Assembly: GCF_028368995.1 (NCBI RefSeq)
Contig: NZ_JAQNDL010000003.1
Span: forward strand, 2,720,001-2,784,000
Direction: 5' to 3'
Origin: Nannocystis bainbridge
Lineage (GTDB): Bacteria; Myxococcota_A; Polyangia; Nannocystales; Nannocystaceae
DNA: 64,000 nucleotides
Shown: positions 761-64,000 of the stretch, piece by piece
How the letters are laid out: each line of letters begins with the position of its first letter
Numbering within the stretch: position 1 is the first letter of the stretch
The notes under the pieces: model-generated
The model's input: only the letters and a program-made list of their open reading frames with translations
The model's database searches: none
Told to the model about the DNA's origin: nothing
Translations under genes and position numbers: made by a program

Positions 761-1340
761 GGCCGGCAGCATAAGAGAATTCGGGCCCGCGGCGCCATCG
801 CGCGTCCGCTCACGCTGATGCGCCCAGCAGCGCCCCGCGAGCCCTGCGAGCACGCGTCCGCGCGAGCGCGCCGGGCCGCACCCGCGGCCGGCCCCGCGCT
901 GTCCGCTCCCCCTTGACGGCGCGACCCGCACCCGGAGATCGCCGCACCTCCGCCGGCAGACCCCCGCCTGCGGCCGCGCCGGATGGCGCGCTCGGTCCCC
1001 GCGCGCCCGCGTGCCCGCGGCGCCGACGTCCGCCGCCGCCTCCGACCGCCGCCCCGTCCGGGCCTGTCCCTTCGGACATCCGGTCTCCGCGCTCCCTGAC
1101 CGCATTTCACAATGCGCCGATCTTGCGTGACACCGGCGCAGCGGTGAATCAAAGCAGTTTGTTCTCAGCACATTGATCCGCGTCCGCGCGCGCCCCCGCC
1201 CGTCGCTCGCAGGCCCCAATCCATCCGCGTCTGCGCATTTCGTCGCCACGAATACGGCGTTCCTCGCGATCGCTCGTTCCCCGCCGCGTCCGTTCGCGCT
1301 TGAATGTAGCGAGACGCGAGCCTATCCTCGCCGCGGTCGG

Positions 1341-1732
1341 ATGGACGAATCGATGATGACGCTGCGACGTCTGCTCGCGGTCCACGACGAGGCCATCATC
1401 GACGCCGGCCTGGCGTGGGTGCGCCAGGCCGGCGCGCTCGACCTCGCGGAGCGGCCGCTCGCCGAGGCCCGGGCCCTGGTCGCCGACAGCGGCTCCTTCG
1501 CGTTCCACCCCGCGGGTTCTTCGCTCCGCATCTCCACCCCGCTGCGCCGCTCCTTCGCATTCCACCCCGCCGGTTCTTCACCCCCGCGCGCGGCACCGGC
1601 GGCAGCGGGCTCGCGCTCCACATCGTCCTCCACCCTGTCACCGAGTTGCTGGGCGGCACCATTCACCTCGACCCCGCGCCCGAGCGCGGCGCTCGCTTCA
1701 ACGTCCGCTTCCCCCCCGAGGCCGGCGCATGA
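1341..1732 (+). pseudogene. Degenerate sensor histidine kinase remnant
   Basis: The ATG-1341 frame reads like a protein N-terminus (MDESMMTLRRLLAVHDEAII...). A different frame encodes an HATPase C-terminal remnant (FFTPARGTGGSGLALHIVLHPVTELLGGTI...GARFNVRFP) similar to the end of the next kinase. No H-box or N-box; 57-bp internal duplication at the junction. Confidence 0.6.
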
Positions 1733-3258
1733 CCCCTCCTGAAACGCGAACTTGCTCGATTCGGACCCCCTCTGCCCCGCTCGTGCCCCACCTCGGTCGC
1801 CTCGAGCTCGACCCGCGGCTGGTCGTCCGCAGCTTCGACGCCGGCTTCGCCGCGCTCGCGGGCGAGCGCGCCGACGAGGTCCTCGGGCGCCCGCTCGACG
1901 CCCTCTTCAGCGTCCGTGACCGCCGGGGGATCCGCCGCTTCGACGAGGCCATCAGCCACAGCGACGCCCGCCACATCGACCTCCACATCGACCTTCACCT
2001 CGGCGCCCGCGACGTCCTCGCCCGCCTCCTCCTCTCGCGCACCGATGTCGGCTGGCTCGCCTTCGTCGAGGATCTCGGCGGCGCCGGCAACCTCGTGTCC
2101 GAGCTGGCCCACAGCCGCGAGCTGTGGCGCGAGGTCGTGCATCAATCGGCCGAGGGCGTCGCCGTGCTCGGCAGCGACGGCCGCCTGCTCGAGTACAACC
2201 CCGCCTTCTTCCGCCTGCTCGACCTCCGCTCGACCCGCAACATCGCCCTCAGCGAGGAGGCCGTGCGCGGCGCCCCGCTCGTCGACCTGCTGCTCGACGA
2301 CTCGCTCGCCCCTCTGCGCGAGCACCTCGCCGGCAGCGGCGGGCTCGCCCGCGAATTGCAGCACCGCAGTCGCTGCCTCGAGTTCGCCGTTCGCCCGCTC
2401 GCCTTGCCGCGCCAGCGGTTCGCCGGCGTCTGGCTGGCCTTGCGCGACATCACCGAGCGGCGCCGCGCCGAGCGTCTGCGGGCCGCCCTCGACGCCGCCC
2501 GCGAGGAGCTCTTGCTCAAGGAGAAGCTCGCCGCGCTCGGCGGCCTCGTCGACGGCATCGCCCACGAGCTCGGCGACCCGCTCGGCGTCGCCGTCACCGC
2601 CGCCGGCCTCGCCCGCGATCAGCTGCACGAGCTGCGCGCCTCGTTCGAGGCCGGCATCCTGCGCCAGCGCGACATGCGGCACCACCTGCAGCAGGCCCTG
2701 GCCGCCGCCGACCTCGCCCTCGCCAACCTGCGCCGCGCCGCCGCCCTCGTCGCTGGCGTCAAGCGGGTCGCCGTCGACAGCTCCGAGACAATTCGGAGGG
2801 ACATGTCCGTCGGGACATATGTCAATACCATCGTCGCCGGCCTGAGCCCGTGGACCGCCGGCACCCCGCACCGCGTCCACGTCGAACTGCGCGCCGACCC
2901 GCTCGTCTCCGTGTTCCCGGCCGCCCTGGCGCAGATCGTCACCAACCTGGTCCACAACGCCCTGACTCATGCCTTCCCTGCCGGTCGCCCCGGTCGCATC
3001 GTCGTGTGGGTCGACGTCGCCGGCGACAAGGTCGAGATAGGCTGCCGCGACGACGGCGTCGGCATGACCCCCACCACCTTGCCGCGGATCTACGAGCCCT
3101 TCTTCACCACCACCCGCGAGCACGGCACCGGCCTCGGCCTCTACATCGTCCACAACCTCGTCACCGACCTCCTGCGCGGCACCGTCGTCGCCCGCTCCAC
3201 CCCCGAGCGCGGCACCACCGTGGTCATCCGCTTCCCCGCCCGCCCCGCAGACCCGTGA
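1729..3258 (+). CDS. PAS-domain sensor histidine kinase
   Basis: PAS-like segments; H-box GIAHELGDPL, N-box QIVTNLVHNA, G1 DDGVGM, F EPFFTT, G2 GTGLGL. Confidence 0.93.
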   Translation: MTPPETRTCSIRTPSAPLVPHLGRLELDPRLVVRSFDAGFAALAGERADEVLGRPLDALFSVRDRRGIRRFDEAISHSDARHIDLHIDLHLGARDVLARLLLSRTDVGWLAFVEDLGGAGNLVSELAHSRELWREVVHQSAEGVAVLGSDGRLLEYNPAFFRLLDLRSTRNIALSEEAVRGAPLVDLLLDDSLAPLREHLAGSGGLARELQHRSRCLEFAVRPLALPRQRFAGVWLALRDITERRRAERLRAALDAAREELLLKEKLAALGGLVDGIAHELGDPLGVAVTAAGLARDQLHELRASFEAGILRQRDMRHHLQQALAAADLALANLRRAAALVAGVKRVAVDSSETIRRDMSVGTYVNTIVAGLSPWTAGTPHRVHVELRADPLVSVFPAALAQIVTNLVHNALTHAFPAGRPGRIVVWVDVAGDKVEIGCRDDGVGMTPTTLPRIYEPFFTTTREHGTGLGLYIVHNLVTDLLRGTVVARSTPERGTTVVIRFPARPADP

Positions 3259-3437
3259 ATCACGACACCCGCCGAGCAGCCCTCTCCGACGCTCCACCCG
3301 CAGGTCCACGATTCCTCGCCGCTCGTTACCTCCGACCCTCCTCGTCGCAACCAACCCGCGCCCTTGATGCGACCTGCTCGAGTATATTAGCCATGCCTTC
3401 GCGGCCTCGTGGACCGCTCTTCGCTCGCCCGTCCGCC

Positions 3438-4190
3438 ATGCTCTTCGACGCCCACCTCCACATCATCGAACCGCGCTTCCCGCTCGTCCCCAATCAAGGC
3501 TGGCTGCCCGCTGCTTTTGATGTCCCCGAGTACATGTCCCATGCGACAGCCATGGGCATCACTGGCGGCGCCGTCGTGTCCGGCTCGTTCCAGGCGTTCG
3601 ACCAGTCGTACCTCGAGGACGCCCTCGCCCGGCTCGGCCCCACCTACGTCGGCGTCACCCAGCTCCCGGCCGACGTCCCGGACGCCGAGGTCGTGCGACT
3701 GAACCATCTCGGCGTCCGGGCCGTGCGCTTCAACCTGCGTCGCGGTGGTTCGGCCGACCTCGCCGACCTCGAGACCCTCGCCCGCCGCGTCCACGACCTC
3801 GCGGGATGGCACACCGAGCTCTACGTCGATTCGTCCGACCTGTCGGAGCTCGCGCCGCGACTGCGTGCGCTGCCCCGGGTCAGCATCGATCACCTCGGCC
3901 TGTCGGCGGCCGGTCTGCCGACCTTGCTCGCGCTGGTCGAGCATGGCGTGCGCGTCAAGGCCACCGGCTTCGGCCGCGTCGACTTCGAAGTGGCTGACGT
4001 CCTGCGCCAGATCTCCGCCATCGACCCTCACGCCCTCATGTTCGGCACCGACCTGCCCTCGACCCGCGCCCCGCGGCCCTTCACACCCGCGGACCTCCCT
4101 CTTTTAAAAGAGGCCCTGAGCCCCGAGCTGTCACGCCGCGCCCTCTACGACAACGCGATCGCCTGGTACCGCCCCGCCGCCCTCGCATAA
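3438..4190 (+). CDS. Amidohydrolase family protein (Amidohydro_2, lactonase-like)
   Basis: N-terminal FDAHLH metal-binding motif, GVRAVRFN, SIDHLG, LMFGTDLP; ATG at 3438. Confidence 0.9.
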   Translation: MLFDAHLHIIEPRFPLVPNQGWLPAAFDVPEYMSHATAMGITGGAVVSGSFQAFDQSYLEDALARLGPTYVGVTQLPADVPDAEVVRLNHLGVRAVRFNLRRGGSADLADLETLARRVHDLAGWHTELYVDSSDLSELAPRLRALPRVSIDHLGLSAAGLPTLLALVEHGVRVKATGFGRVDFEVADVLRQISAIDPHALMFGTDLPSTRAPRPFTPADLPLLKEALSPELSRRALYDNAIAWYRPAALA

Positions 4191-4196
4191 TCACTG

Positions 4197-4575
4197 CTCG
4201 CCCGTTCGTACTGAATCACGCTGCGCCACTGTGCCTCCTCCGTTCCGTGCTGCTCACCCCGCAGCGTTGCGCCTCGCCCGTTCATGCCAGTCACCCCGCG
4301 GCGTTGCGCCTCCTCCGTCCGCGCTGGTCACCCCGCGGCATTGCCCCTCCGTTCTTGCTGGTCCCCTGCGGTCATGCACCTCGCCCGTTCGTGCTGCTCA
4401 CCCCCGCGGCGTTGCGCCTCGCCCGTTCGTGCCAGTCACCCCGCGGCGTTGCGCCTCGCCCGTTCGTGCCAGTCACCCCGCGGCGTTGCGCCTCCTCCGT
4501 CCGTGCTGGTCCCCCCGCGCCGTTACGCTTCCTCCGTTCGTGCTGGTCCCGCTGCGGTCATGCACCTCGCCCGCT
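4197..4575. repeat. About 10 degenerate tandem copies of a ~37-bp unit
   Basis: Unit CTCGCCCGTTCGTGCCAGTCACCCCGCGGCGTTGCGC, head-to-tail without spacers, between convergent genes. Confidence 0.9.
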
Positions 4576-4583
4576 CGCGCCGC

Positions 4584-7467: not shown

Positions 7468-7638
7468 ATGCGTGATCACAACCATACCCCTCAAGCCCCC
7501 TACCACCGGGAACACCCGAACATCCCGCTGTCGATGACGGCCGCGGACAGCGCCCCGTATACGGCCGCGTCCAGCTTCTCGCCGTGGGGCGGCGACGATT
7601 TGGAAGAGTGCGAAGAGGAGCCGTGCGCCTGGTCGTGA
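7468..7638 (+). CDS. Possible 56-aa small acidic protein
   Basis: GAGGA 4 nt upstream of the ATG; MRDHNHTPQAPYHREHPNIPLSMTAADSAPYTAASSFSPWGGDDLEECEEEPCAWS. Confidence 0.4.
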   Translation: MRDHNHTPQAPYHREHPNIPLSMTAADSAPYTAASSFSPWGGDDLEECEEEPCAWS

Positions 7639-7805
7639 CTGGCCTCTGGGCCAGGTCCTCGAGGACAGGCCCCTCTCGCGAGCCCGGCGCGTGAATTCCA
7701 AGGCGCGTCCGGCGATCGGGCGAAATTGCGCCAATTGACGAGAAGCTGGTCGTAAAGGGCGTCCAGACGATTGACAAGCGGTGGCCCGTCGGACGAATTG
7801 GGGCC

Positions 7806-8960: not shown

Positions 8961-8991
8961 CTGAGCCGCGCGCGCTCGCGTCAGCGCCGAG

Positions 8992-9022
8992 AAGGGCATG
9001 TCCTCGCGGACATGCCCTTTTT
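8992..9022 (+). terminator. Possible intrinsic terminator overlapping a 14-bp motif array
   Basis: Perfect 12-bp stem AAGGGCATGTCC/GGACATGCCCTT with TCGC loop and a short T run, ~30 nt after the stop codon. Confidence 0.5.
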
Positions 9023-9068
9023 GACATGGTCAAAAGAGCATGTCTCAGAGGGCATGACCATTCAGACA
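8999..9068. repeat. Five-unit phased array of the 14-bp TGTCC-N4-GGACA palindrome
   Basis: TGTCC-TCGC-GGACA|TGCCC-TTTT-TGACA|TGGTC-AAAA-GAGCA|TGTCT-CAGA-GGGCA|TGACC-ATTC-AGACA. Confidence 0.9.
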
Positions 9069-9180
9069 TGTCACGACATTGCGCGCCATGCATCACCCCG
9101 ACGCGCCCGAGCCGCCTCGACGCGCGCGTGATTCCAGCGCCCGCTTTTTGATAAAGCGAGAGAGAGTCTTTGGGACAGGC

Positions 9181-10935: not shown

Positions 10936-11118
10936 GATCTCCAGCATGCCCGAGCACCGACCTCAGCCGTAAGGGGCCGCCGATCGCCGCTGCCTCACGA
11001 CCTCCGCCACAGCGCCTGACTGTTCGGACATGCCCTTACGGACATCTTCGAAAGTGCGCGCGGCCGCGGTCCGCCGACCCCGGCGAACAGCGGCCGGTTT
11101 CACTCGCAAAGACGTGTC

Positions 11119-12828: not shown

Positions 12829-12831
12829 GTT

Positions 12832-16785: not shown

Positions 16786-18075
16786 GTGACGGCCCTCGGC
16801 GTCGGCATCCTCGGCCTCGGCAACGTCGGCGCGGGCACGGTGCGGCTCCTCGGCGAACGCCGCGAGCGCATCGAAGCCCGCCTCGGGGTGGCCCCGACCA
16901 TTCGTCGTATCCTCGTGCGCGACCGCGAGCGCGAGCGGGCCGTCGAGGTCGCGCCGGAGCTGCTCACCACCGACATCGACGAGGTCCTCGGCGACCCCGA
17001 GATCGCCATCGTCGTCGAGCTCATGGGCGGCGTCGAACCGGCGCGCAGCTACATCCTGGCCGCGCTGCGGGCCGGCAAGCACGTCGTCACCGCCAACAAG
17101 GCGGTGCTCGCCGAGCGCGGCGCCGAGATCTTCGCCGAGGCCGCGCGGGTCGGTCGGGCCGTCGTCTTCGAGGGCAGCGTCGCCGGCGGGATCCCCCTGC
17201 TCCGCAGCCTGCGCGAAGGCCTCGCAAGCGACCGGATCACCGGCCTTTGCGGGATCGTCAACGGCACCTCCAACTACATCCTCGACGCCATGACCCGCAC
17301 CGGCGCCGGCTTCGCCGACGCGCTCGCCGGGGCCCAGGCCGCCGGTTACGCCGAGGCCGACCCCAGCCTCGACGTCGGGGGCGGCGACGCGGCCCACAAG
17401 CTGGCGCTGCTGGCCCTCGTGGCCTTCGGCGTGCAGGTCGACCCGGGCACGATCGCCACCGAGGGGATCTCCCACGTCACCGCGTTCGACATCCGGGCCG
17501 CGGCGGAGCTCGGGTTCGTCATCAAGAGCCTGGCGATCGGCCAGCGCGACGAGCACGGCGTCGGCCTCCGCGTCCACCCCACGCTGGTCCCCCGGGACCA
17601 CGTGCTCGCCGGCGTCCAGGGGGCCTTCAACGCCGTGCTGGTCCAGTCCGACGCCCTCGGCCCCAGCCTCTACTACGGCCGCGGCGCCGGCATGATGCCG
17701 ACCGCCGTCGCCGTGGTCTCCGACATCCTCGAGGTCGCCCGCGACATCCTCGCTGGCCTGTACTCGCGGCCAGGTCCTTCCGGACATGTCCCTTCGACCA
17801 CCTCAAAGCCCGTCAGCCTGCGCCCGCTGGCCGAGGTCGTCTGCGCGCACTACCTGCGCTTCCGCGCCCCGCACGTCCCCGGCGTGCTCGGCCGCGTCGC
17901 CGCCTGCCTCGGCCGCCACGGCGTCAGCATCCGCCGCATGGCGCAGGAGACCCCGTCGGCCGACGGCTCGGCGGCGATGGTCATGCTGACCGAGCCCGTC
18001 GCCGACGGCTCACTCGCGGCCGCCCTGGTCGAGGCCGCCCTGCCCGTCACCCGCCTGCGCCTGCTCGCGGAGTGA
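16786..18075 (+). CDS. hom: Homoserine dehydrogenase with C-terminal ACT domain
   Basis: GLGNVG, VVTANK, FEGSVAGGIP, GIVNGTSNYIL, GYAEADP..DVGGGDAAHK; GTG start inferred. Confidence 0.95.
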   Translation: MTALGVGILGLGNVGAGTVRLLGERRERIEARLGVAPTIRRILVRDRERERAVEVAPELLTTDIDEVLGDPEIAIVVELMGGVEPARSYILAALRAGKHVVTANKAVLAERGAEIFAEAARVGRAVVFEGSVAGGIPLLRSLREGLASDRITGLCGIVNGTSNYILDAMTRTGAGFADALAGAQAAGYAEADPSLDVGGGDAAHKLALLALVAFGVQVDPGTIATEGISHVTAFDIRAAAELGFVIKSLAIGQRDEHGVGLRVHPTLVPRDHVLAGVQGAFNAVLVQSDALGPSLYYGRGAGMMPTAVAVVSDILEVARDILAGLYSRPGPSGHVPSTTSKPVSLRPLAEVVCAHYLRFRAPHVPGVLGRVAACLGRHGVSIRRMAQETPSADGSAAMVMLTEPVADGSLAAALVEAALPVTRLRLLAE

Positions 18076-18234
18076 CGGCGGCTCGACCTGTTCGAAGAGA
18101 CAGATCGCGGCGTTCGGCGCGGTCGACGGCGGACCGACCTGCCCGAAGAGACAGTGATCGGCATGCGGCGCAGCCGGCCGAAGCTCCTCGGCCCGGCGAG
18201 CGACGATCGTGAATCACCTGTCCTCAGGGACAGC

Positions 18235-20853: not shown

Positions 20854-20900
20854 CGCCAGGTCCTTCGCGGCATGTTCTCTGCGACAGGTCCCATGGGACA
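20845..20900. repeat. Four-unit phased 14-bp motif array spanning a stop codon, spacer and the next start codon
   Basis: TGGCT-GTAG-CGCCA|GGTCC-TTCG-CGGCA|TGTTC-TCTG-CGACA|GGTCC-CATG-GGACA. Confidence 0.75.
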
Positions 20901-21899: not shown

Positions 21900-22682
21900 T
21901 CACGGCGCCAGCCACACGTCGCCGGACTCGACCCTGCGCGGCGGCCCGCCGTCTGCCAGCGCGACCATCAGCGCCCCGTCGTCGGCCAGCCCCAGCGCCT
22001 TTGCCTGCACCTTCGGGCCTGCCCCATTCGACATGTCCACAAAGACATCCCGATCTCGCAGCGCGCAGTGGGGCTCGTAGCGGCCGCGGATCGCCGCGAA
22101 CCCGCCGGAGAAGAACTGCTCCAGCGCGGCCTCCAGCGCCGGCAAGATCCGCCCCAGCACCGCCTCGCGGCTCGGCGTTGCTTCGCCCAGCTCGCGGCGC
22201 AGGCTCGTCGCCGTCGCTGCCAGCGGCTCGGGGAACAGCGACCGACCCACGTTGACGCCGAAGCCGACCACCACCTCGGGCGACGACCCGACCCACCGCG
22301 CCTCGCAGAGGATCCCCGCCAGCTTGCGGCCTTCGACCAGCACGTCGTTGGGCCACTTCAGCTGCGCCGCTGGCAGCCAACGCGACAGGCCCTCGCGCAG
22401 CCCTGCGCCCACCGCCAGCCCGAGCGCCCCGATCGGCTTGCCCGCGTCCGGCCGCAAGATCGCGCTGACATACAGGTCCTCGCCCGACTCCGACGCCCAC
22501 GCCCGCCCCAGCCGCCCGCGCCCCGCCGTCTGTGCGTCCGCGGTCACCAGCGCCCCGTGCGGCGCCCCGGCCCGCGCCCACGCCAGCGCGCGATCGTTGG
22601 TCGACCCGAGCTCGGCCCAGTGCTCGCGCGGGCGCCCGAGCCAGCGCGTCGCAAAGGCCATATTTTCGAAGGAGTCGCTCAC
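21900..22682 (-). CDS. birA: Biotin--[acetyl-CoA-carboxylase] ligase without N-terminal HTH
   Basis: STND, QTAGRGRLGRAW, LKWPND, KLAGILCE, GFGVNV. Confidence 0.94.
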   Translation of the reverse strand: MSDSFENMAFATRWLGRPREHWAELGSTNDRALAWARAGAPHGALVTADAQTAGRGRLGRAWASESGEDLYVSAILRPDAGKPIGALGLAVGAGLREGLSRWLPAAQLKWPNDVLVEGRKLAGILCEARWVGSSPEVVVGFGVNVGRSLFPEPLAATATSLRRELGEATPSREAVLGRILPALEAALEQFFSGGFAAIRGRYEPHCALRDRDVFVDMSNGAGPKVQAKALGLADDGALMVALADGGPPRRVESGDVWLAP

Positions 22683-22863
22683 GCCCGCCCCCCGCAGGGC
22701 ATCCGCCGTTGCGAGCCCCTGGACAGGCGCATCGTCAGCACGAACACCCTCGATCGCTCGAAGAATCTGTCCCTTCGGACATCCCCAGCGCTCCGCGCGA
22801 GCATCCGCGCACGCGGTCGCTCTTCACTGCACATGTCCCTTCAGACATGCCCCATTCACCGGC

Positions 22864-23836: not shown

Positions 23837-24517
23837 TCACGCCGCGTGCCAGCGCTCGATCGGCCAGCCGAGGGCGCGGGCGCGCCGGAGCAGGCGTGGG
23901 TCCGGGCTCACCACTTGCGGTCGGCCCACGCGCTCGAGCATCGGCAGGTCCGAATAGCTGTCCGTATAAAAGTAACTTCGGGACAGGTCGATGTCGTGCT
24001 CCGCCGCGAACTTCTCCGCCAGCACCACCTTGCCCGGCCCCGCGCACGCCGGCGCCACGTGCTTGCCGGTGAGGCGCCCGCCCTGCTCCTCGAGCCGGGT
24101 GCACAGCACGTGCTCGACGCCCAGGCGCTCCGCCAGCGGCTCGACCGAGAAGCGCGTGCCTGACGACAGCAGCGCCACCACGTGCCCGTCGCGGCGGTGG
24201 CGGGCCACGCGGGCCTGTCCTTCGGGGCAGATCCAGCGCACGATCTCCGCCTCGAACCACGCCCGCGTCTCCGCCTCCACCTCGGCCACGGGCACCCCTG
24301 CGTAGTCGCGGACCGCCTTGGCCGTCATCGCCTCGAGGTCGAGCAGCGAGAGGCGGTAGCGGACCACCCACGCCAGCGAGCGCAGCGCCCTGGCCGCCGA
24401 CATCTTGCCGGAGCGTCGCTGGTGCCGCACCCACAGCACCGCCGAGTTCACGGCGAGCAGGGTGTGATCGACGTCGAAGAACGCGGCCACGGTGCTCGGC
24501 TCGGGCCTGGTCGTCAC
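23837..24517 (-). CDS. HAD-IB family hydrolase (SerB-like)
   Basis: FFDVDHTL, LLSSG, FYTDSYSDLPML; GTG start overlaps the upstream stop (GTGA). Confidence 0.92.
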   Translation of the reverse strand: MTTRPEPSTVAAFFDVDHTLLAVNSAVLWVRHQRRSGKMSAARALRSLAWVVRYRLSLLDLEAMTAKAVRDYAGVPVAEVEAETRAWFEAEIVRWICPEGQARVARHRRDGHVVALLSSGTRFSVEPLAERLGVEHVLCTRLEEQGGRLTGKHVAPACAGPGKVVLAEKFAAEHDIDLSRSYFYTDSYSDLPMLERVGRPQVVSPDPRLLRRARALGWPIERWHAA

Positions 24518-40283: not shown

Positions 40284-40561
40284 GGCTCGCAGAGCGGCAT
40301 GTCCCAAAGGACAGCCGTGAGCGCGCCGAGATCTTGCAGCCGCAGCGATCGCGTCGGTCGACGATCGTCTGGGGTGACACAGGAGCGGGCAGCAGCCGCG
40401 CGGGCCGTCGATCTCGAAGTCCACGCCGCCCTGTCGACCCGGCATCGGCCATCGCGGGCCCTCGGCGCCGCTCGCCCGGGCCGATGACCCCCGCGGTTCA
40501 CGCTCGCGCTGCGTGCTGACGCGCGCCGGGCGCTCGTGTATCCTCGCGCGCACCAGCGCGC

Positions 40562-45965: not shown

Positions 45966-47207
45966 TTGGTCACCCCGATCGCCCGCTACGCGCCTGCCCT
46001 CTTCGACCTCGCCCAGGACATCGTCGGCGGCCTCCCGCTGCGCCTGCTCGAGCAGTGGTGGGCCAGCGAGCAGACCGAGGCCGACGCGCTGCGCCTGCTC
46101 GCCGCCTGCAGGGTCACCGGCTACAACGTCGTCTCCGACGCCGCCGGCCTGACGCGCCTGACCGCCGAGCGCGGGTTGATGGAGATCCTCGCCATCATCG
46201 ATCAGCCCAAGGCGATCGTCCACGATCACGGACTCGCGCTCGGCGGCGAGAGCGTCGGGATCTGGGCCGCCGACAACACCCAGATGTTCTACCCCGCCGC
46301 GCTCGCGCCCGAGCGCCTGCTCGCCTCGCTGCTCGCCGTGCAGGACCAGGTCGCCCGCCGCTGCGCCATCAAGATCGGCCTCGCCGCCCACTTCGGCGAG
46401 TTCTACGGCGCCGGCGGCGGCCTGTACGGCGACGCCTCCGACGCGATCGAGGCGTTCGCCGAGGACCACGTCGCCGGCGGCGAGATCGTCGTCAGCCAGG
46501 CCGTCGTCGCTCGCCTGCCGCCCGCGCACGGCTTCACCCTCGCGCCCATCGGCGACACCGCCGCGCTCGAGCGGCTGTGGCGCGTCGTCGACGGTCCGCG
46601 CCTGTCCCTCGAGACAGCAACGACTCGGCGCTACCCGATCCCCTACTCGGACGCTTTTTATGCCGACCTCGTGCGCTTCGAGGGTCGCCTCGGCGATCCG
46701 GAGCTCGCGCGCGAGATGACCGCCAAGTACACCCGGCACAAGGTCGTGGTCCTGATCGAGCGTCACGCCCAGGACGCCGAGAGCCAGGCGATCGCGCTGT
46801 TCACCAACCTCTCGCTGTCGGCGCGGATGAAGGACGTCGGCCTGCGTCACCTCGACGGCGACCACGGGGCCGAGGTCAAGGTCAGCGGGCCGCTCGGGAT
46901 CTACACCTTCGACGATCCGGCGCGCGCCCTGGCGTTCGCCCGCGGCTTCCGCGGCGAGCTCGCGGACGCCGGCATCGATTGCCGGATCGGCGTCGACCAG
47001 GGCCCCGTGCTGGTGTTCGACCTCGCCGGCGGCGGCAAGGACATCGCCGGCATGCCGGTCAACATCGCCTCGAAAATGGCCCAGGACTGCGGCGAGTGGG
47101 GCAAGCTGTACCTCAGCGATCGCGTGCACGCCGGCCTCGAAGTCCCCGAGTTCCGCGAGCGCCGCTTCACCGTCTCGGGCCTGCAGCTGCGCGCCTTCGA
47201 GGGCTGA
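45966..47207 (+). CDS. Protein with two divergent class III nucleotide-cyclase-like domains
   Basis: VSDAAGLT, ADN, IKIGLAAHFGE...YGDA; second domain CRIGVDQGPV...DIAGMPVNIASKM. Confidence 0.72.
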   Translation: MVTPIARYAPALFDLAQDIVGGLPLRLLEQWWASEQTEADALRLLAACRVTGYNVVSDAAGLTRLTAERGLMEILAIIDQPKAIVHDHGLALGGESVGIWAADNTQMFYPAALAPERLLASLLAVQDQVARRCAIKIGLAAHFGEFYGAGGGLYGDASDAIEAFAEDHVAGGEIVVSQAVVARLPPAHGFTLAPIGDTAALERLWRVVDGPRLSLETATTRRYPIPYSDAFYADLVRFEGRLGDPELAREMTAKYTRHKVVVLIERHAQDAESQAIALFTNLSLSARMKDVGLRHLDGDHGAEVKVSGPLGIYTFDDPARALAFARGFRGELADAGIDCRIGVDQGPVLVFDLAGGGKDIAGMPVNIASKMAQDCGEWGKLYLSDRVHAGLEVPEFRERRFTVSGLQLRAFEG

Positions 47208-48708: not shown

Positions 48709-50118
48709 TCAGGCCGCCGCTGCTGCTGCCTGATCGGCGCGGCCGAGCAGCGCGTCTGCGGCCGGACCGATCACCCCGATCAGCGCGTCGCGGCACAGCG
48801 TCACCTGCTCGTCGGGCATCAGCCGCCCGTGCGCGCGCAGCAGCTCCGGATCGGCGTCTGCCGGCCACGGGCGGACGCCGACCGGCTCGCGCAGGGCCGC
48901 GGCGAACGCCTCGCGCACCGCCTCGCGCACCGCGGGCGAGCGGCCGAGGGCCCACTGCACGAACCGCCAGGCCAGCTGCGAGTGGCGGCCCTCGTCGACG
49001 GCGATCTGCCGCAGCACGCTGCGGACCACGTAGTCGCTGGTCTGGAACGCGGCGACCTGGGCCAGCAGGGCCGCCAGCGTCTCGCCGACGCAGCCCTCGC
49101 GCACCGCCGCGGCGGCCAGCGCCGGCAGGTCGCTGTCGCCGAGCGCATCGGACATGTCCAAACGGCCAGGTCCCATCGGGCTGCCCGCGTACGCGCCCGC
49201 CAGCGCGTAGCAGGCGCGCGCGTGTGCGATCTCGTCGGCCATCGCCCGCTGCGCCCCGTCGACCAGCGACGCCGGCGCGCCGATGGCCAGCAGCTGCAGC
49301 GCGAAGCGGGCGAACGAGGCCACCGACGCGTGCTCCTCGGCCGCCGTCGCGCCCCACAGCTCGGCCAGCGCGGCGCGGGTCGGCTCGTCGAGGCCCGTGA
49401 GCGACGGCAAGATCTGACCCTGCCAGTCGCTGCGGCGCAGGCTCGGCGCCACCCGGCCCGCGCCCTCGACCATGAACGGCCGGCCCTCGCACACCATCCC
49501 GTCGCCGTGGGCGACGAAGTAGCAGCACTGGTCCGGAGCGGCCGGCATCGGGTCCGGCCCGCACTGCACGGTCAGATCGGTGTAACTGCAGAACGGGTCG
49601 CCGGTGGCCGCCGCGTTGGCCCAGCTCTGGCTGCACGCCTCGTCGCAGGCGGCGCAGTCGGCCAGGCCGTCGGGCACCGGGAAGCACACGTACTTCTGCA
49701 TCAGCCCCGGCGGCGGCGGCTCGCACGTGAACTCGCCCGGCTCGTCGGTGGTCCCGGGCTCGCCCGTCGTCGTCGTCGTGCTCGTCGTCGTGCCGCTGGT
49801 CTCGCCGGTCGTGCTGGTGGTCTCCTCGCCGGTGATCGTGTTCGGCGTCGTCGTCGTGCCCGGCGCGGTCGTGGCCTCGCTCGTCGAGGTCGTCACGCCC
49901 TCCGTGGTGGCCGTCAATTCGCCCGGGTCATCGGTCGTGCCGGTGAGCGGCCCCGACGTCACTGCGCCGGTGGTCGAAGTGGTCGAGCTGGTCGAGGTCG
50001 ATTCGGGTTCGGTCCCCGCGTTCGTCTCGCTGCTCGCGCCCCCGCAGGCGGCCACCAGCCCCAGCGCCGCCATCAGCTCGACATAGAAGGCGCGGGTCAC
50101 GGCAAAGTGGGAGCGCAT
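48709..50118 (-). CDS. Ferritin-like-domain lipoprotein
   Basis: VAAC lipobox, Thr linker, Cys-rich segment, GRPF; EEHASVASF, DEIAH, EGCVGET, DEGRH di-iron-type motifs. Confidence 0.85.
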   Translation of the reverse strand: MRSHFAVTRAFYVELMAALGLVAACGGASSETNAGTEPESTSTSSTTSTTGAVTSGPLTGTTDDPGELTATTEGVTTSTSEATTAPGTTTTPNTITGEETTSTTGETSGTTTSTTTTTGEPGTTDEPGEFTCEPPPPGLMQKYVCFPVPDGLADCAACDEACSQSWANAAATGDPFCSYTDLTVQCGPDPMPAAPDQCCYFVAHGDGMVCEGRPFMVEGAGRVAPSLRRSDWQGQILPSLTGLDEPTRAALAELWGATAAEEHASVASFARFALQLLAIGAPASLVDGAQRAMADEIAHARACYALAGAYAGSPMGPGRLDMSDALGDSDLPALAAAAVREGCVGETLAALLAQVAAFQTSDYVVRSVLRQIAVDEGRHSQLAWRFVQWALGRSPAVREAVREAFAAALREPVGVRPWPADADPELLRAHGRLMPDEQVTLCRDALIGVIGPAADALLGRADQAAAAAA

Positions 50119-50432
50119 GCGGGAAACCTAGCCAAGCCCTGCCGGGCACGCCACCGGGCTCATGCGATTCGCGCCACCACCCGCGCCCCGTGTTCGCCCG
50201 CCCTCCGTCGATCACATCCGGTGCCGTGAAGCAGGCCCACGAAATGCGGCGCTCGTCACCAGTTCGCGCAGTTGCGCGCACCTGTCCCTTCGGACATCCG
50301 AGTGGGCCCGATCGCAACGCTCGCATGGGTAAAAGCAACGTGTTTCAACCGACCTCGTCGGCAGTCGCCGGGGCCGGCACCCACGTTCGCGGGCCCGATC
50401 TCTCCGGCACCTCGCTCGTCGCCGCCAGCGAG

Positions 50433-58441: not shown

Positions 58442-61123
58442 TTGAGCACACAAGACAGTCGCGGCGGCGGAGCCTCGGGGCTCCGCGACCGAAGGGTCGC
58501 CCGGGTGCTCGACCGCGAGATCTCGCCGGTCTGGCACGACCGTTTCGCGCGGCTGATCGTCCGTAACCTGCCCAACCTCCCCGAGGTCCTCGCGCTCGAC
58601 ATCCACTGCGGGACCGGGCGCGGCACGGGCGAGCTGCTGCATCGCCTCGGCGCCGGCGCGAAGATCCTGGCGATCGACCCCGACGAGGGCGCGCTCGAGC
58701 TGGCGAAGACGCGGATCCGCGCCGAGTGGAAGAACCGGGTCTACTTCAAGTCCGGCCACTTCGACGACGTCACGGCGATGGCCGACGACAGCTACAACCT
58801 CGTCGTCGCCAATCTGGTGCTCGGCGAGTCGGTCGACCTCGAGCCGGCCCTGGGCGAGATGATCCGCGTCGGCAAGATCGGCGGCCGGATCCTCGCCACC
58901 GTGCCGCTGCACGGCACCTGGGAAGAGGTCGAGGACATCTTCGCGGAGATCTTGCGCGACGCCGGGATGACGGCGGCGCTGCGCCGCCTGGAGGCGCTGC
59001 GAGCGATCCGCCCCACCGGGCCGCAGCTCGGCAAGATGCTGCGCAACCTCGGCGCGGTCGAGGACGACTACGTCATCGAGCACGAGCGCTTCCAGCTGCT
59101 GTTCCCGAGCGGCCGTGAGTTCCTGTTCGCGCCGGTGATCGAGCACGGTCCGCTGCAGATGTGGAAGGCCGTGATCGGCAAGGACGGCGCCCCGCAGGAG
59201 CTGTTCTGGCGCCTCAAGGAGGCGATCGACACCTACTACGCCGGCCACGTCCTGGCGGTCACGGTGCACGCGGGACTCATCCACGTCGAGGTCGCCAAGG
59301 GCACCGCGCGGCCGGGTCCGCGGCTCGCGGCGCGGTTCTGGCGGCACTACCCCGAGCTCGACAAGCTGTGGGGCGGCCTCGCCGTCGGCTACGCCCGCGT
59401 CTCCGACCCGATCCTCCCGTTCAGCGACGCCGACGTCAGCGACTTCGACCTCGACATCGACATCGACGAGTCCGACCCGCGGCGGCGCACCGGCGCCATG
59501 CGGGCCCTGCGGCAGACCGGCCGTCAGGCGGCCGTCGAGACCCCGTCGCCGGAGGACTTCGGCCTGCGCTTCCGCCCGCGCGACCCGACCGAGGCCTCCG
59601 AGATCCGGGCGCTCGACGCCGAGACCTCGGGCCTGCGCGCCCGCGTGCCCGGCTCCGAGGCCTCGGGTCTGCGCGCGCTGTCGCAGCTGCGCGACACCGA
59701 GATCTCGGCGGTCCGCCCCGCCAGCTCCTTCCGCCGGATCCCCGTCGCCGCCGACGAGGACGATTTCTCCGAGCTCAACAGCTTCGACACCCGCTCGCAC
59801 AAGGCTGTCCCGGCGGCCAGGTCGCCCGCGCCCGCCGCCGAGCCCGACGAGGACCTGTCGCGCCTCGCCGAGACCGAGGACGACTTCTCCAACCTCAACG
59901 ACAGCCCGCTGCTGCCGCGGCGCCCGATCTCCTCGAGCTGGCGCCGCTCCTCCGAGTCGTCCTCCAGCCGCCCCGTCCCCACCGACCTCCGCGGCGACAG
60001 CGAGAGCAGCGCCCACCGGGCCCTCGCCGAGCTGTCCCTTCGGCCAGGTGACTCCGCCACCGCCGGCCGGCGCCCGAGCGGCCCGATCCCCGTGGCTCGC
60101 CGCGCCGAGGCCTCAGCCAGCCAGGCCCGCCGCCCGACCTCCGGCCCCTCGGCCGAGGCCTCCGGCAGGCGCCCGCTCGGCAACACCGAGTCCTCCGTCT
60201 CTAGCCGCTTGCCCGACGCCGCCGAATCCGGCAGGCGCCCGCTCGGCAACACCGAGTCCTCCGTCTCGAGCCGCCTGCCCGACGCCTCCGGCTCCGGCAA
60301 GCGCCCCCTCGGTCCCACCGAGACCTCCGTCTCGAGCCGCCTGCCCGACGCCTCCGGTTCCGGCAAGCGCGCCCTCGGTCCCACCGAGACCTCCGTCTCC
60401 AGCCGCCTGCCCGACGCCTCGAGCTCCGGCAAGCGCCCCCTCGGCACCACCGAGACCTCTGGCCTGCTCGCCGGCGCCTCCGGTTCCGGCAAGCGCCCGC
60501 TCGGTCCCACCGAGACCTCCGTCGCCAGCCGTCTGCCTGACGCCTCCGGCTCCGGCAAGCGCCCCCTCGGCACCACCGAGACCTCCGGCCTGCTCGCTGG
60601 CGCCTCCGGCTCCGGCAAGCGACCCCTCGGCACCACCGAGACCTCCGGCGCCAACCTGCTGGCCGACGCTGCCGCTTCCGGCAAGCGCCTGCTCTCCGAC
60701 TCCGCCTCCGGCAAGCGCCCCTTGCCGGACCTGCGCAAGCCGGAAGCCGAGGCCGCCGATAGCGAGACCAGCGGCTCGCGCCCTGCCGCCCGGCCGACGG
60801 CCCCGCCCGAGGCGAGCCGGCCTGCGCTGCCCTCGTTGCGCCTGCCCGACCCCAAGCCGACCAGCGCCAGCTCGAGCGGCAGCATGTTCCGCCCGCCGAC
60901 CTTCAAGTCGCCGGGCGAGGAGAGCCTGCCGCCGGTCAAGCACGCCTTCCGCCCGCCGGGCCCGGAGAGCGTCGACGAGGAGGAGCCGGAGGAGATCGAC
61001 GAGCTCGAGCCGGTCGACGAGTTCGAGCCCGACGACGAGCCGGTTTTCGCGGCCCCGCGCCCGCCGCCGCCCAAGGCCCCGCCGCCGCGCCCGCCGAGCC
61101 TCAGCCCGGACAAGAAGAAGTGA
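58442..61123 (+). CDS. Class I SAM-dependent methyltransferase-like domain with a long disordered, repetitive C-terminus
   Basis: ALDIHCGTG, LAID, YNLVVAN, EMIRVGK.GG; more than 500 aa of Ser/Arg/Pro-rich tail. Confidence 0.8.
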   Translation: MSTQDSRGGGASGLRDRRVARVLDREISPVWHDRFARLIVRNLPNLPEVLALDIHCGTGRGTGELLHRLGAGAKILAIDPDEGALELAKTRIRAEWKNRVYFKSGHFDDVTAMADDSYNLVVANLVLGESVDLEPALGEMIRVGKIGGRILATVPLHGTWEEVEDIFAEILRDAGMTAALRRLEALRAIRPTGPQLGKMLRNLGAVEDDYVIEHERFQLLFPSGREFLFAPVIEHGPLQMWKAVIGKDGAPQELFWRLKEAIDTYYAGHVLAVTVHAGLIHVEVAKGTARPGPRLAARFWRHYPELDKLWGGLAVGYARVSDPILPFSDADVSDFDLDIDIDESDPRRRTGAMRALRQTGRQAAVETPSPEDFGLRFRPRDPTEASEIRALDAETSGLRARVPGSEASGLRALSQLRDTEISAVRPASSFRRIPVAADEDDFSELNSFDTRSHKAVPAARSPAPAAEPDEDLSRLAETEDDFSNLNDSPLLPRRPISSSWRRSSESSSSRPVPTDLRGDSESSAHRALAELSLRPGDSATAGRRPSGPIPVARRAEASASQARRPTSGPSAEASGRRPLGNTESSVSSRLPDAAESGRRPLGNTESSVSSRLPDASGSGKRPLGPTETSVSSRLPDASGSGKRALGPTETSVSSRLPDASSSGKRPLGTTETSGLLAGASGSGKRPLGPTETSVASRLPDASGSGKRPLGTTETSGLLAGASGSGKRPLGTTETSGANLLADAAASGKRLLSDSASGKRPLPDLRKPEAEAADSETSGSRPAARPTAPPEASRPALPSLRLPDPKPTSASSSGSMFRPPTFKSPGEESLPPVKHAFRPPGPESVDEEEPEEIDELEPVDEFEPDDEPVFAAPRPPPPKAPPPRPPSLSPDKKK
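60160..60725 (+). repeat. In-frame coding tandem repeat, about 9 units of 19-21 codons
   Basis: SG(S)G(K/R)RPLG(N/P/T)TE(S/T)S(VSSRLPDA or GLLAGA). Confidence 0.9.
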
Positions 61124-62259
61124 CGCGGCGAGCGCTGGTGGCCCTCGCCGCCCTGCTCGCCTGCGGCCAGCCTCAAGGGACAGGTCCCAACAAACCTGCC
61201 CCGAGCGACATGTCCTCAAAGACAGCCCCGGAGCCGGCCCCCGCGCCGGAGCCGGAGCCCGAGCGCGCGGCCCCGCCGGTGCGCAAGGACGGCACGATCT
61301 ACGCCGAGACCCAGCAGATGGGCACCCGCGTCTCGATCAACGTCCACGTCGGCGAGCGCGCCCCGGCCGAGGCGGGCGCGGCGATCGAGGCCGCGTTCGC
61401 GGAGATCGAGCGTGTCGAGCAGATCATGAGCGAGTGGCGGCCGAGCAGCGAGCTGTCACAGCTCAACGACGGCGCCGGCGGCCCGCTGCGCCCGCTGAGC
61501 GTCGATCTCTTCGACATCCTGCAGCGCAGCAAAGAGATCGCCCAGGCCACCGGTGGCGCCTTCGATCCGACCTTCTACAGCGTCGGCCAGCTGTGGAAAT
61601 ACGACCCCGGCAGCCGCCCGCCGACGCGCGAGGCGATCCTCGAGAAGCTGCCGCTGGTCGACTGGCGCTCGATCGAGCTCGACCCCGCCACCCGCAGCGG
61701 TCGCCTCGCCAAGCCCGGCATGAAGATGGGCCTCGGCGCGATCGCCAAGGGCTACGCGGTCGACCGCGCCTCGACCATCCTGCGCGAGCGCGGCTTCCCC
61801 GATCACATCGTCGAGGGCGGCGGCGACACCTTCGTCTCCGGCACCAAGGCCGGCAAGACCTGGATGGTCGGCATCCAGCGCCCCGACGGCCCCGGCTCGA
61901 TCGCCGCCATCCCGGCCCGCGACCGCGCCGTCGTCACCTCGGGCGACTACCAGCGCTTCATCGAGTTCGAGGGCGTCCGTTACTCGCACATCCTCGACCC
62001 GCGCACCGGCTTCCCCGTGCCCGAGGATCGCAGCCTGCAGAGCATCACGATCCTCGCGCCCAACGCCACCGACGGCGACGCCTACGCCACCGCCGTCGCA
62101 GTCATGGGCGTCGACGCCGGCCTCGAGTTCATCACCTCGCACCCTGGCCTCGACGCCGCGCTCATCACTCGCACCGGCGAGCTCCGCGTCACGCCCGAGC
62201 TGGCGAAGATCCTCGTCTACCCGCAAGACAAGCCCGCTCCGCCGCCGCCGGCCCCGTGA
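61120..62259 (+). CDS. apbE: FAD:protein FMN transferase lipoprotein
   Basis: LLAC lipobox; MGT, SELSQLN, GAFDPT, GAIAKGYAVD, VTSGDYQR, HILDPRTG. Confidence 0.94.
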   Translation: MTRRALVALAALLACGQPQGTGPNKPAPSDMSSKTAPEPAPAPEPEPERAAPPVRKDGTIYAETQQMGTRVSINVHVGERAPAEAGAAIEAAFAEIERVEQIMSEWRPSSELSQLNDGAGGPLRPLSVDLFDILQRSKEIAQATGGAFDPTFYSVGQLWKYDPGSRPPTREAILEKLPLVDWRSIELDPATRSGRLAKPGMKMGLGAIAKGYAVDRASTILRERGFPDHIVEGGGDTFVSGTKAGKTWMVGIQRPDGPGSIAAIPARDRAVVTSGDYQRFIEFEGVRYSHILDPRTGFPVPEDRSLQSITILAPNATDGDAYATAVAVMGVDAGLEFITSHPGLDAALITRTGELRVTPELAKILVYPQDKPAPPPPAP

Positions 62260-62520
62260 TCGCCCGCGCCGGTCATGCCGGCCCGGCGATCTCCCGCGAG
62301 CGCCCGCGACTCGTATCGCTGTCATCCTCCGGCTCCGCCCAAAGCCCCGAACTCGCGCGGGCCGGACCTGCCGCAGCGACAGCATTTTCGCGCCGGCGAG
62401 CCTGCGCCCGTGGCCGCCGCGGGCTCGCCCGTCGCACCCGCGCGAAACCGCACAGGCCATCGCACCTTCGATCGACGGCACCTCCGTCGGCGCCGGCAAA
62501 CTGGCCTAGACTCGTATCCA

Positions 62521-64000
62521 GTGACCGAGCACGGCCGTCGCAGCGAGTCCGACGGGGTCGACGAACCCCCGGCCGGCGCGCGTCCGGGCGCAGCGGGCTC
62601 GGCCGCCACCGCACCTGTCTCTTCGGCCAGCCCCGTCCACGCCGGCACCGATCCTGTCCTTTCGGCCAGCTCCTCCGACATCACCGAACCTGTCCCGGCG
62701 GCCAGCTCGATCGACGCCACCGTCGGCACCATGCTCGAGCCGGAGCAGGACCCTGGCGGCGGCGAGCGCACGCGCGTGCGCCTCGTCAGCGGCCGCGTCG
62801 TGCCCGGCACTCGCTATCGCCTGGTCCGCTGGCTCGGCGAGGGCGGCATGGGCGTCGTCTACGAGGCCGAGCACGTCGACATCGAGCGCAAGGTGGCGCT
62901 CAAGGTCCTGCGCTACGACCTCAGCCGGCGCGCCGAGATGGCCGCCGTGTTCCGCGCCGAGGCCCGCGCCGCCAGCCGCACCGGCCACCCCAACATCGTC
63001 GAGATCTACGACTTCGGCGAGCTCCCCGACGGGCGGCTCTTCATCTGCATGGAGCTGCTCGACGGCAAGGACCTCGTGCCCGCCACCGAGTCCGAGGTGC
63101 GCCCGCCGGCCGAGGTCCTCGCCATCTTCCGTCAGCTCTGCAAGGCCCTGGGCGCCGCCCACAAGGCCGGCATCGTCCACCGCGACATCAAGCCCGAGAA
63201 CATCATCCTCGTGCGCAAGGCCGGGCGCGACGGCGTCGTCAAGGTCGTCGACTTCGGCATCAGCGCCGTGCTCGGTCAGGAGCGGCGCGGCAAGATCGCC
63301 GGCACCCCGCACTACATGGCACCCGAGCAGATCCGCGGCCTCGCGTTCGACGGTCGCCTCGACATGTACGCGGCCGGCTGCGTCGCCTTCGAGCTGCTCA
63401 CCGGCAGCCCGCCGTTCCCCAACGAGGCGCTCGAGGAGGTCCTGAACGCCCACGTGCACCAGCCGCCGCCCTCCTTCCGCCAGGCCCGGCCCGACCTCCA
63501 GCTGCCCGCCGCGCTCGAGCAGGTCGTCCTGCGCTGCCTGTCCAAACAGCCAGACGAGCGCTACGCCGACATGCACGAGCTCGAGGCCGCCCTGTGCGAG
63601 GCGCAGATCGCCTGCGGCATGCGGACCGCCTGGGACGACCTGCCGCTGCCCGAGTGCGCCCCCGAAAGGCTCGAGCGCCTGCGCGCCCGCATGCCGAGCC
63701 CGCAGGCCGTCCCGCGCCGGTGGCTGTGGCCCATCGTCGCGGGCGCCTCGCTCGTCGCCGCCGGCGTCGCCATCGCCGTCGCCCTGCGCACCCCCGACCC
63801 GCCCGCGGCCGAGCGCTCGCGCATCGACGCCCTCGCCGAGGAGGCCCTCGTCGCCGCCAGCCAGACCCTCTACGTCGCCCCGCCGCCGGACCAGCCCGAC
63901 GTCCCGACCGCCTACACCAAGGTCCTCGAGCTCGAGGCCATCGGCGGCCCCGCTGCCGGCCTCGCCGACGCTCGCGCCGGCGAGCTGCGCGGCCAGTTCG
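62521..64000 (+). CDS. Hanks-type Ser/Thr protein kinase with a TM segment; runs off the right edge
   Basis: Own translation: LGEGGMGVVY, VALK, HRDIKPEN, DFG, GTPHYMAPEQ, then hydrophobic WLWPIVAGASLVAAGVAIAVAL; GTG start inferred. Confidence 0.94.
   Translation, partial: MTEHGRRSESDGVDEPPAGARPGAAGSAATAPVSSASPVHAGTDPVLSASSSDITEPVPAASSIDATVGTMLEPEQDPGGGERTRVRLVSGRVVPGTRYRLVRWLGEGGMGVVYEAEHVDIERKVALKVLRYDLSRRAEMAAVFRAEARAASRTGHPNIVEIYDFGELPDGRLFICMELLDGKDLVPATESEVRPPAEVLAIFRQLCKALGAAHKAGIVHRDIKPENIILVRKAGRDGVVKVVDFGISAVLGQERRGKIAGTPHYMAPEQIRGLAFDGRLDMYAAGCVAFELLTGSPPFPNEALEEVLNAHVHQPPPSFRQARPDLQLPAALEQVVLRCLSKQPDERYADMHELEAALCEAQIACGMRTAWDDLPLPECAPERLERLRARMPSPQAVPRRWLWPIVAGASLVAAGVAIAVALRTPDPPAAERSRIDALAEEALVAASQTLYVAPPPDQPDVPTAYTKVLELEAIGGPAAGLADARAGELRGQF

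Follow-up and report, generated by a model that had tools for sequence, protein, structure and literature searches.

The genome of the myxobacterium Nannocystis bainbridge contains a short, interrupted palindrome, TGTCC-N4-GGACA (hereafter, the box), which recurs in thousands of copies, is tiled head to tail in a strict 14-bp register and is concentrated just past the stop codons of genes. The box was noted in a 64,000-nucleotide stretch of DNA (hereafter, the window; positions 2,720,001 to 2,784,000 of contig NZ_JAQNDL010000003.1, or C2:2720001-2784000 in the coordinates used below), and is analyzed here across the 11.05-Mb assembly (5 contigs, ~71.5% G+C). The window is ordinary chromosome, encoding dnaG, rpoD, histidine kinases, a P450 and similar genes, and its RpoD most resembles that of a Nannocystis sp. 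metagenome-assembled genome (87% identity), followed by those of Paraliomyxa (75%) and Enhygromyxa (70%). Judging from sequence comparisons, the box family is real, under selection and specific to the genus, and it is apparently undescribed. The reading favored here, tentatively and at somewhat less than even confidence, is that the box would be a duplex-DNA site for an abundant, dimeric, sequence-specific candidate protein, with arrays of boxes marking the ends of genes. That a protein reads the box is what we infer; a boundary function at gene ends is suggested more weakly.

Abundance and architecture of the box

Two null models were used for counting: 100 dinucleotide-preserving shuffles for the window, and the reversed, not complemented, sequence for the genome. 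Seven perfect boxes occur in the window, all at the positions where a preliminary description of this DNA had placed them, against a mean of 0.02 and a maximum of 1 in the shuffles. Sites with at most one mismatch number 26 (1.62 expected, maximum 6), and include all 16 one-mismatch copies previously listed together with three that had been missed, at 15806, 31892 and 59806. Twelve more degenerate copies that had also been listed are indeed two-mismatch sites, although at that level ~40% are expected by chance genome-wide. Across the genome, copies with zero, one and two mismatches number 1987, 4258 and 7530, relative to 3, 161 and 3152 in the reversed control, giving 6245 sites with at most one mismatch versus 164. 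The enrichment is real and genome-scale, and chance and codon bias were both ruled out as its source by the shuffles, the reversed control and a synonymous null described below.

The excess is confined to a single geometry. All other spacers between N0 and N11 give 0-16 copies each, and lone half-sites are not enriched (TGTCC has 12351 copies, and the median for permutations of its bases is 11114). In a de novo scan of 5-Nk-5 palindromes, TGTCC-N4-GGACA ranked first by excess, followed by its own shifted registers; the other high scorers were words rich in G+C whose 3n+1 spacings are characteristic of coding DNA, leaving the box as the top palindrome without codon drive. Conservation reaches three bases beyond the core on each side, for a full box of ~20 bp, R-C-M-TGTCC-N4-GGACA-K-G-Y. 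The spacer shows a symmetric Y-Y-R-R preference and is otherwise free, with the commonest spacer accounting for 107 of the 1987 perfect copies, and no complementarity was found between spacer positions 5 and 8. Farther out than ~3 bases, the flanks show just the 14-bp periodicity of neighboring units, and a longer mobile element of the miniature inverted-repeat transposable element (MITE) type was rejected on this basis.

Adjacent boxes lie head to tail in strict 14-bp register. Site-to-site distances peak solely at 14, 28, 42, 56 and 70 bp (485, 305, 232, 128 and 64 occurrences, respectively), and chaining of units with at most two mismatches yields 1451 doublets, 363 triplets and arrays as long as 8 units. 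In keeping with this register, TGTCC-N9-TGTCC is found in 1321 copies while adjacent spacings give 38 or fewer, and the junction of abutting units forms a 10-bp palindrome, GGACATGTCC, with a CATG center and 956 copies in the genome. Most arrays have a different spacer in each unit, but some carry identical or alternating spacers, which points to growth by tandem duplication. In the window, ten stretches contain at least two units in register. The preliminary description had noted one array, at 8999-9068, but had missed both the general tiling and the 20-bp extent of the box; it had also proposed comparing density with origin and terminus, and density proved even along the contigs, with no obvious ori/ter pattern.

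Placement within and between genes

All gene-relative numbers given here derive from a crude, in-house gene caller based on GC3 (G+C at third codon positions), which predicts 6634 genes covering 78% of the genome, over-extends starts and misses some genes. Within coding sequence (CDS) interiors (7.6 Mb), 666 perfect copies occur in 506 genes, versus 11-26 in ten shuffles that preserve each protein and each gene's codon usage; the enrichment therefore withstands a codon-aware null of the kind previously called for. The reading frame seen most often puts the initial T of the box at a third codon position, and T is found there in 425 of 624 cases, as compared to 3.9% of all third positions, indicating a signal at the nucleotide level. 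The recurring CPFGH peptides that had been attributed to the motif are correctly explained for frame 0, where TGT CCC TTC GGA CAT encodes CPFGH.

Roughly one in three genic copies (234 of 666) lies within 3n-spaced repeats of low-complexity proteins, and copies of this kind are therefore not independent of one another. Coding repeats of the PEAVPADS type, with periods of 36-84 bp, are among the densest box clusters of the genome. Three low-complexity repeat stretches carry a box at every repeat (C2:2066859-2067996, C5:659415-660781 and C2:1217038-1217953), with periods of 30-141 bp in multiples of 3; the first reads as PEAVPADS-like units, and it and the third are in predicted genes, while the second lies where the caller found none. 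The densest clusters were considered as possible pointers to an associated gene, but were set aside since several are low-complexity coding repeats with the box in frame.

Of the 6245 sites with at most one mismatch, 2690 (43%) fall in predicted CDS and the remainder in convergent (1452), tandem (1743) and divergent (358) intergenic regions. Density is highest in convergent regions (2.75 per kb), followed by tandem (1.21) and divergent regions (0.61), and in tandem regions it reaches 4.9 per kb in the first 20 nt past the stop codon, falling to ~0.6-1 beyond 200 nt. Similarly, 671 of 1178 convergent regions (57%) carry a site, versus 862 of 3016 tandem and 184 of 1073 divergent ones, and the disparity is even clearer in short regions, with 18 of 454 divergent regions below 200 bp carrying a site versus 324 of 539 convergent regions of 50-200 bp. 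A quarter of all genes (1658 of 6626; 25%) have a site within 100 nt after the stop. The impression that the motif is spread regardless of genes was therefore mistaken: sites are concentrated just after stops and in convergent regions, and are rarest near promoters.

Classical intrinsic terminators look rare in this genome, as only 132 of 6626 gene ends combine a perfect hairpin of at least 7 pairs with at least 4 T in 7 bases. Perfect hairpins of this length are found at 1995 gene ends and contain the motif at 581 of them, but a motif-containing hairpin is accompanied by at least 4 T in 7 bases at just 40. When sites were oriented by the upstream gene, no T enrichment was found after them, the copy at 8999 being an exception, and classical terminators were rejected as an explanation for want of an average T-run past the boxes. 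A terminator consensus scan of window positions 1-20000 gave 5 terminator-like sites versus 3.5 expected, none of them at a box, and the window contains no Rfam match at the gathering score.

Conservation and lineage distribution

The genomes used for comparison came from the same genus (10), two sister genera, six other genera of the family and 12 other families. Perfect copies were found in all ten of the other same-genus genomes, in numbers of 114-2090 versus 1-6 in controls, while the two sister genera contain 87 and 161 and the remaining 18 genomes 0-7. A more stringent 24-mer spanning two units has 184 copies in N. bainbridge and is present in nine of the ten same-genus genomes and in none of the 20 others, with all controls at 0; the single same-genus genome that lacks it is 64% complete. 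The proposed survey of relatives thus revealed a genus-wide family that is weak in two sister genera and at background elsewhere. In 400 kb of one sister genus (G013), 8 boxes were found, with C or A before the core, no arrays and GGACATGTCC once. In sister genus G011 (61% G+C), the top interrupted palindrome of C18:1-400000 was TGCAC-N5-GTGCA, with 23 copies versus 0 in the control, which may be a separate, lineage-specific box.

The block syntenic to the window was compared in four other species of the genus; within this block, genes are ~80-94% identical. Intergenic regions with a site in N. bainbridge also have one in 23 of 28 species comparisons, as opposed to 9 of 65 for regions without a site. 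Turnover is evident as well, with 9 of the 22 positions aligned in all five species qualifying in one species alone. In a rate test on 36 positions, where sites were ascertained in one species and differences were measured among the other four, divergence was 8.3% for the ten core positions (bootstrap confidence interval 5.6-11.1), 15.0% for the spacer and 14.9% for flanks more than 3 bases away. The core thus changes at about half the rate of spacer and flanks, with bootstrap probabilities of 0.006 and 0.003 that its rate equals or exceeds that of the spacer or the flanks, respectively. At 2804, 46603 and 50283, both half-sites have been kept while the spacer has changed.

Variant profile and likeness to LuxR-type operators

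A palindrome can be selected as a hairpin or as a site on duplex DNA, and the two make different demands on its variants. When four of the five pairs were kept perfect and the fifth was tabulated, non-pairing, one-sided variants proved several times commoner than compensated ones. For example, non-pairing combinations at pair 2/11 include TC (451), CA (381), GA (335), TG (314), AA (230) and TT (178), versus CG (146), GC (78) and AT (25) for the compensated ones. This pair, the most tolerant of the five, sits at the center of the would-be 5-bp stem, precisely where a hairpin would suffer most from a mismatch, and its tolerance counts against a hairpin. Conversely, the G at position 1 and the C at position 12 are nearly invariant, with 25 or fewer variants of any type. 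No further complementary base is present on either side in 46% of perfect copies, and flanks oriented by the upstream gene are symmetric and lack a T-run. Mismatches on the sense strand comprise 1444 of the G.U type, 1240 of the A.C type and 3695 that are unpairable. Hairpin logic does not explain these variants. Taken together, the non-pairing variants, the invariant G and C and the symmetric flanks argue for the site of a dimeric protein on duplex DNA over a hairpin under structural selection, and most evidence favors a two-fold symmetric protein that would read specific bases of the duplex. The suggestion of a dimeric DNA-binding protein in the preliminary description fits this position-specific tolerance, and its idea of a polymerizing protein would fit the 14-bp head-to-tail arrays.

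Among known sites, the closest in form is the operator of the LuxR-type regulators CviR and CsuR, a bipartite palindrome with the same spacing as the Nannocystis box; the ideal form for CviR is CTGNCCNNNNGGNCAG, and CTGTCCGATAGGACAG is found as a natural site of CsuR (PMC12114271). Moreover, the degenerate position of the CviR box corresponds to the most tolerant position of the Nannocystis box, and the 16-bp CviR-type palindrome CTGNCC-N4-GGNCAG has 1103 copies in the genome versus 28 in the control. CviR sites, however, are few and lie upstream of promoters, whereas Nannocystis boxes number in the thousands, at gene ends and inside genes, and divergent regions, where promoter-upstream placement would be expected, have the lowest density. 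Also unlike the CviR box, more than half of Nannocystis boxes have A/T in place of the outer C/G. The earlier statement that the motif matches no known site therefore needs amending as to geometry, although its number and placement are unexplained by CviR. By geometry the box would function as LuxR-type sites do, yet it cannot be classified among them. We know of no description of 14-bp tiling in lux-type boxes.

Proposed mechanism and competing explanations

If the box is the duplex-DNA site of a dimeric protein, each half-site would be read by one subunit, leaving the four central bases free except for the Y-Y-R-R preference. Tiling at 14 bp would place successive dimers ~120 degrees apart around the helix, such that an array could carry a continuous protein spiral. 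Protein spirals on DNA are formed by cooperative repressors at the met-boxes of MetJ and at omega heptads, where short units, palindromic or heptad, follow each other without gaps and bind one dimer each; those operator arrays occur at a handful of promoters, whereas the Nannocystis arrays occur at thousands of gene ends. Point substitutions, also at synonymous positions within genes, give rise to new boxes, tandem duplication lengthens arrays, and selection retains the core. At the ends of transcription units, arrays could serve as boundaries that halt read-through transcription or insulate against it, or that fix DNA topology. Since every box is palindromic, the subset beside stop codons could have grown longer stems and may also act as RNA hairpins.

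A number of observations weigh against this reading. To begin with, no reader protein was found. The genome has few GerE (LuxR-type helix-turn-helix) matches (11, at 10 loci), none of the 10 loci pairs GerE with an autoinducer-binding domain, and the two atypical GerE proteins tested are not genus-wide. One of these, L035 (C2:1196516-1198471), is a 652-aa frame with two tandem GerE domains, and was rejected because its full-length relatives are confined to two same-genus genomes, G001 and G005; in these the match is broken up into two or three frames, and in G001 it includes one stop codon. The other, the GerE-TPR protein L030, was rejected likewise, with full-length relatives solely in G003 and G009. 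The single marginal Autoind_bind match (23.7 bits) lies in a 1238-aa frame outside the 10 GerE loci, and L028 is the only GerE gene with boxes within 300 nt upstream. Next, the test for selection comprises 36 positions from one 64-kb syntenic block in related, non-independent species, and conservation tests on such species overstate independence. In addition, the gene-relative figures all depend on the crude caller, and the preference for gene ends could merely mark where such sequence does least harm. A search of sequencing runs for expression evidence returned metagenome contigs alone and no RNA from this strain. Finally, there are signs of pairing. Stems are extended by at least 3 pairs in 27.6% of copies within 60 nt of a stop, as compared to 13.6% in other intergenic DNA and 7.8% in CDS. 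The outer pair of the 24-mers covaries (odds ratio 6.1), full complementarity between outer spacers occurs 19 times in 275 cases versus 4.1 expected, and the sense strand has a small G.U excess that is strongest at pair 2/11 (253 versus 167). The array at 8999..9068 begins 39 nt past the stop of a VWA-domain gene (7806-8960), and its first unit forms the tip of a long hairpin followed by T's (RNA fold z of -4.2 for 8961-9080). A hairpin lies at the orthologous place in five other species, and across these six species its loops differ while its outer stem is compensated. The longer stems near stops, the covariation and the compensated stem are taken to mean that a subset of gene-end boxes has been extended into true hairpins.

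These signs of pairing also speak for an explanation that we regard as rather unlikely, in which the box would be a hairpin repeat resembling the repetitive extragenic palindromes (REPs) of other bacteria. It would act as a stem-loop, either in RNA (a terminator or 3'-end stabilizer) or at the level of single-stranded DNA, and some enzyme would spread or maintain it, with its sequence conserved through common descent or by a hairpin-binding factor. REPs and their bacterial interspersed mosaic elements (BIMEs) form regularly spaced arrays of short palindromes after genes (PMC2817692), and these, together with REPINs (PMC3337134), share with the Nannocystis box a high copy number, a location after genes in regular arrays and a lineage-specific distribution. 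The box does form regularly spaced arrays after genes and in convergent regions, and its presence in 581 of the 1995 long perfect hairpins at gene ends points the same way.

Other findings do not fit a REP. With 43% of sites in predicted CDS, the box is far from extragenic, and these coding copies arise by substitution, not by insertion. Variants disregard base pairing, those that break it (mid-stem included) outnumbering compensated ones several-fold; nearly half of the perfect copies show no extension of the stem, the loop sequence is free, and there is no T-run on average. The box is also shorter, at 14-20 bp versus 20-40 bp for a REP unit, and lacks the terminal GTAG or CGTC tag of REPs (PMC3733652), as its flank profile shows R-C-M and K-G-Y alone, which are a continuation of the palindrome and not a tag. 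Moreover, no Y1 (RAYT) transposase (PF01797) was found in any of 11 genus genomes at E <= 0.001 (genomes in the search being 64-91% complete), while 6 of 14 control genomes gave hits, and identity with a REP/RAYT system was rejected accordingly. None of six myxobacterial names is mentioned in PMC3733652, and no description of the box was found in the literature on Nannocystis genomes, repeats and myxobacterial REPs (supplements not covered).

A narrower version of the protein reading, which we hold to be unlikely as it stands, is that a dimeric protein would polymerize on 14-bp-phased arrays after stops to form a roadblock or insulator that replaces hairpin-plus-U terminators; boxes inside genes would then be weaker, tolerated members of the family.

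It is also conceivable, but quite improbable in our estimation, that the box serves as a signal for uptake or recombination and is maintained by molecular drive, as are the DNA uptake sequences (DUS) of Neisseria, the uptake signal sequences (USS) of the Pasteurellaceae and possibly the cyanobacterial element HIP1. An uptake or recombination protein that prefers box DNA would cause the box to accumulate wherever it is tolerated, and pairs or palindromes would be co-opted at gene ends. Many uptake sequences do lie as inverted pairs at gene ends. Like DUS and USS, the box has thousands of genus-specific copies in and between genes, and these are evenly spread, substitution-born and conserved; known uptake sequences number hundreds to thousands per genome (PMC2346458), and their establishment is linked to recombination (PMC2397512). 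However, DUS and USS are asymmetric words that occur singly and in either orientation, whereas the Nannocystis box is enriched solely as a strict palindrome of fixed spacing, with no enrichment of its half-sites. The strict 14-bp tiling has, to our knowledge, no counterpart among uptake sequences.

HIP1 (GCGATCGC) is itself a hyper-abundant palindrome found within and between cyanobacterial open reading frames (ORFs) and conserved beyond neutral expectation, for which a role in chromosome or nucleoid structure has been proposed (PMC5861425). It has also been associated with orphan methyltransferases (PMC4390886) and reported to raise transformation efficiency (bioRxiv 10.1101/2024.09.10.611283), the latter in line with an uptake role. 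HIP1 and the Nannocystis box are alike in their strong over-representation and conservation within and between ORFs, but HIP1 is a continuous 8-mer tied to methyltransferases, while the box is interrupted, 14-20 bp in length, gene-end biased and tiled. As a side observation, a decamer containing the HIP1 octamer, GGCGATCGCC, has 787 copies in the N. bainbridge genome versus 1 in the reversed control; this excess probably reflects codon usage (Ala-Ile-Ala), and avoidance of CTAG lowers the control count.

The tie between HIP1 and methyltransferases bears on a last alternative, to which we give very little credence: that a DNA methyltransferase, or some other system of modification or repair, targets the box, whose abundance would be a by-product of biased repair. 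The palindromic unit junction, GGACATGTCC, with its CATG center would suit such a target, but this explanation accounts for neither the free 4-base center nor the 14-bp tiling. Moreover, the enrichment reaches several hundred-fold for ten specified bases, far above any repair bias known to us.

Copies in the window

The principal boxes and arrays of the window are collected in Table 1, with coordinates as window positions.

Table 1. Boxes and in-register arrays of TGTCC-N4-GGACA in the 64,000-nucleotide window.
Position	Feature	Location	Conservation
1065..1078	perfect box	minus-strand ATG in frame with, and near the 5' end of, long ORF 2..1249	
2804..2817	perfect box	inside histidine-kinase gene 1729-3258, between PAS and HATPase domains	
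3521..3548	two one-mismatch units, 14-bp register		retained in 3/3 aligned species
7640..7667	two units (2 and 1 mismatches), 14-bp register		
8999..9068	five 14-bp registers (mismatches 0, 2, none, 2, 2)	convergent intergenic	
11017..11044	two units in register	intergenic region 10948-11118	
17759..17800	three units in register (2, 1, 2 mismatches)	long intergenic region 17025-18607	
18219..18232	perfect box	intergenic region 17025-18607	
20873..20900	two units in register	start of TetR-family gene 20872-21555	
22020..22047	two units in register	inside predicted biotin-ligase-family gene 21900-22682	
22768..22847	perfect box (22768) and one-mismatch box (22834)		
24216..24229	one-mismatch box		26 bases identical in 3/4 other species
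40300..40313	perfect box	divergent intergenic region 39829-40561	
46603..46616	one-mismatch box	inside predicted gene 46179-47207	perfect box in 4 other species
49155..49168	one-mismatch box	inside predicted gene 48709-50118	retained in 4 species
50283..50296	perfect box	intergenic region 50119-51484	
61197..61224	two units in register	near start of predicted gene 61120-62259	

Several copies have instructive orthologs. The copy orthologous to the 1065 box in one species (G010) carries a 9-bp internal duplication, and the 2804 box is retained, with a different spacer, in all three aligned species. At 50283, the box is retained in three of four other species with varying spacer and flanks, and in G007 it has a 1-bp deletion. 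The region orthologous to that of the 40300 box contains one site in each of four species.

Boxes may also overlap the punctuation of genes. On the minus strand at 1065, the ATG of CATGTCC is a possible start codon, and in examples from elsewhere in the genome a TGA stop codon followed by CC makes up the first, one-mismatch half-site of several arrays. The box at 22834 ends 17 nt past the stop of a minus-strand gene (22864-23727), and the box at 15806 lies inside a P450 domain, that at 19896 inside a Macro domain (both Pfam matches). The 1.6-kb intergenic region at 17025-18607 contains seven box-like sites and is 1.9-5.2 kb long in four other species, its differences in length marking it as a variable region. 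Finally, copies ending in GGCCA, at 59806, 60033 and 62616-62691, sit in coding sequence; those at 62616-62691 are spaced by 39 and 36 bp, not 14, and lie in a protein kinase gene ahead of the kinase domain. These GGCCA-ending copies may represent a peptide repeat outside the box family.

Significance

REP-type repeats at gene ends and HIP1 have both been known for decades, with functions that are largely unsettled, and the box family brings together traits of both in the large, GC-rich genome of a myxobacterium. Its bipartite form, with a near-invariant G/C in each half-site and a free center, means that sequence and structure could be separated by point mutants, and its strict 14-bp tiling predicts a cooperative protein array. 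Moreover, the box is on or off at the level of genera, with two sister genera as weak intermediates, which would make a reader traceable by comparison of gene content. In practical terms, the box offers a strong marker with which gene ends in the genus can be annotated, and it needs attention in the design of expression constructs for these producers of natural products. Should a role at gene ends prove true, the boxes would illustrate how transcription units are delimited in a lineage that has few classical terminators.

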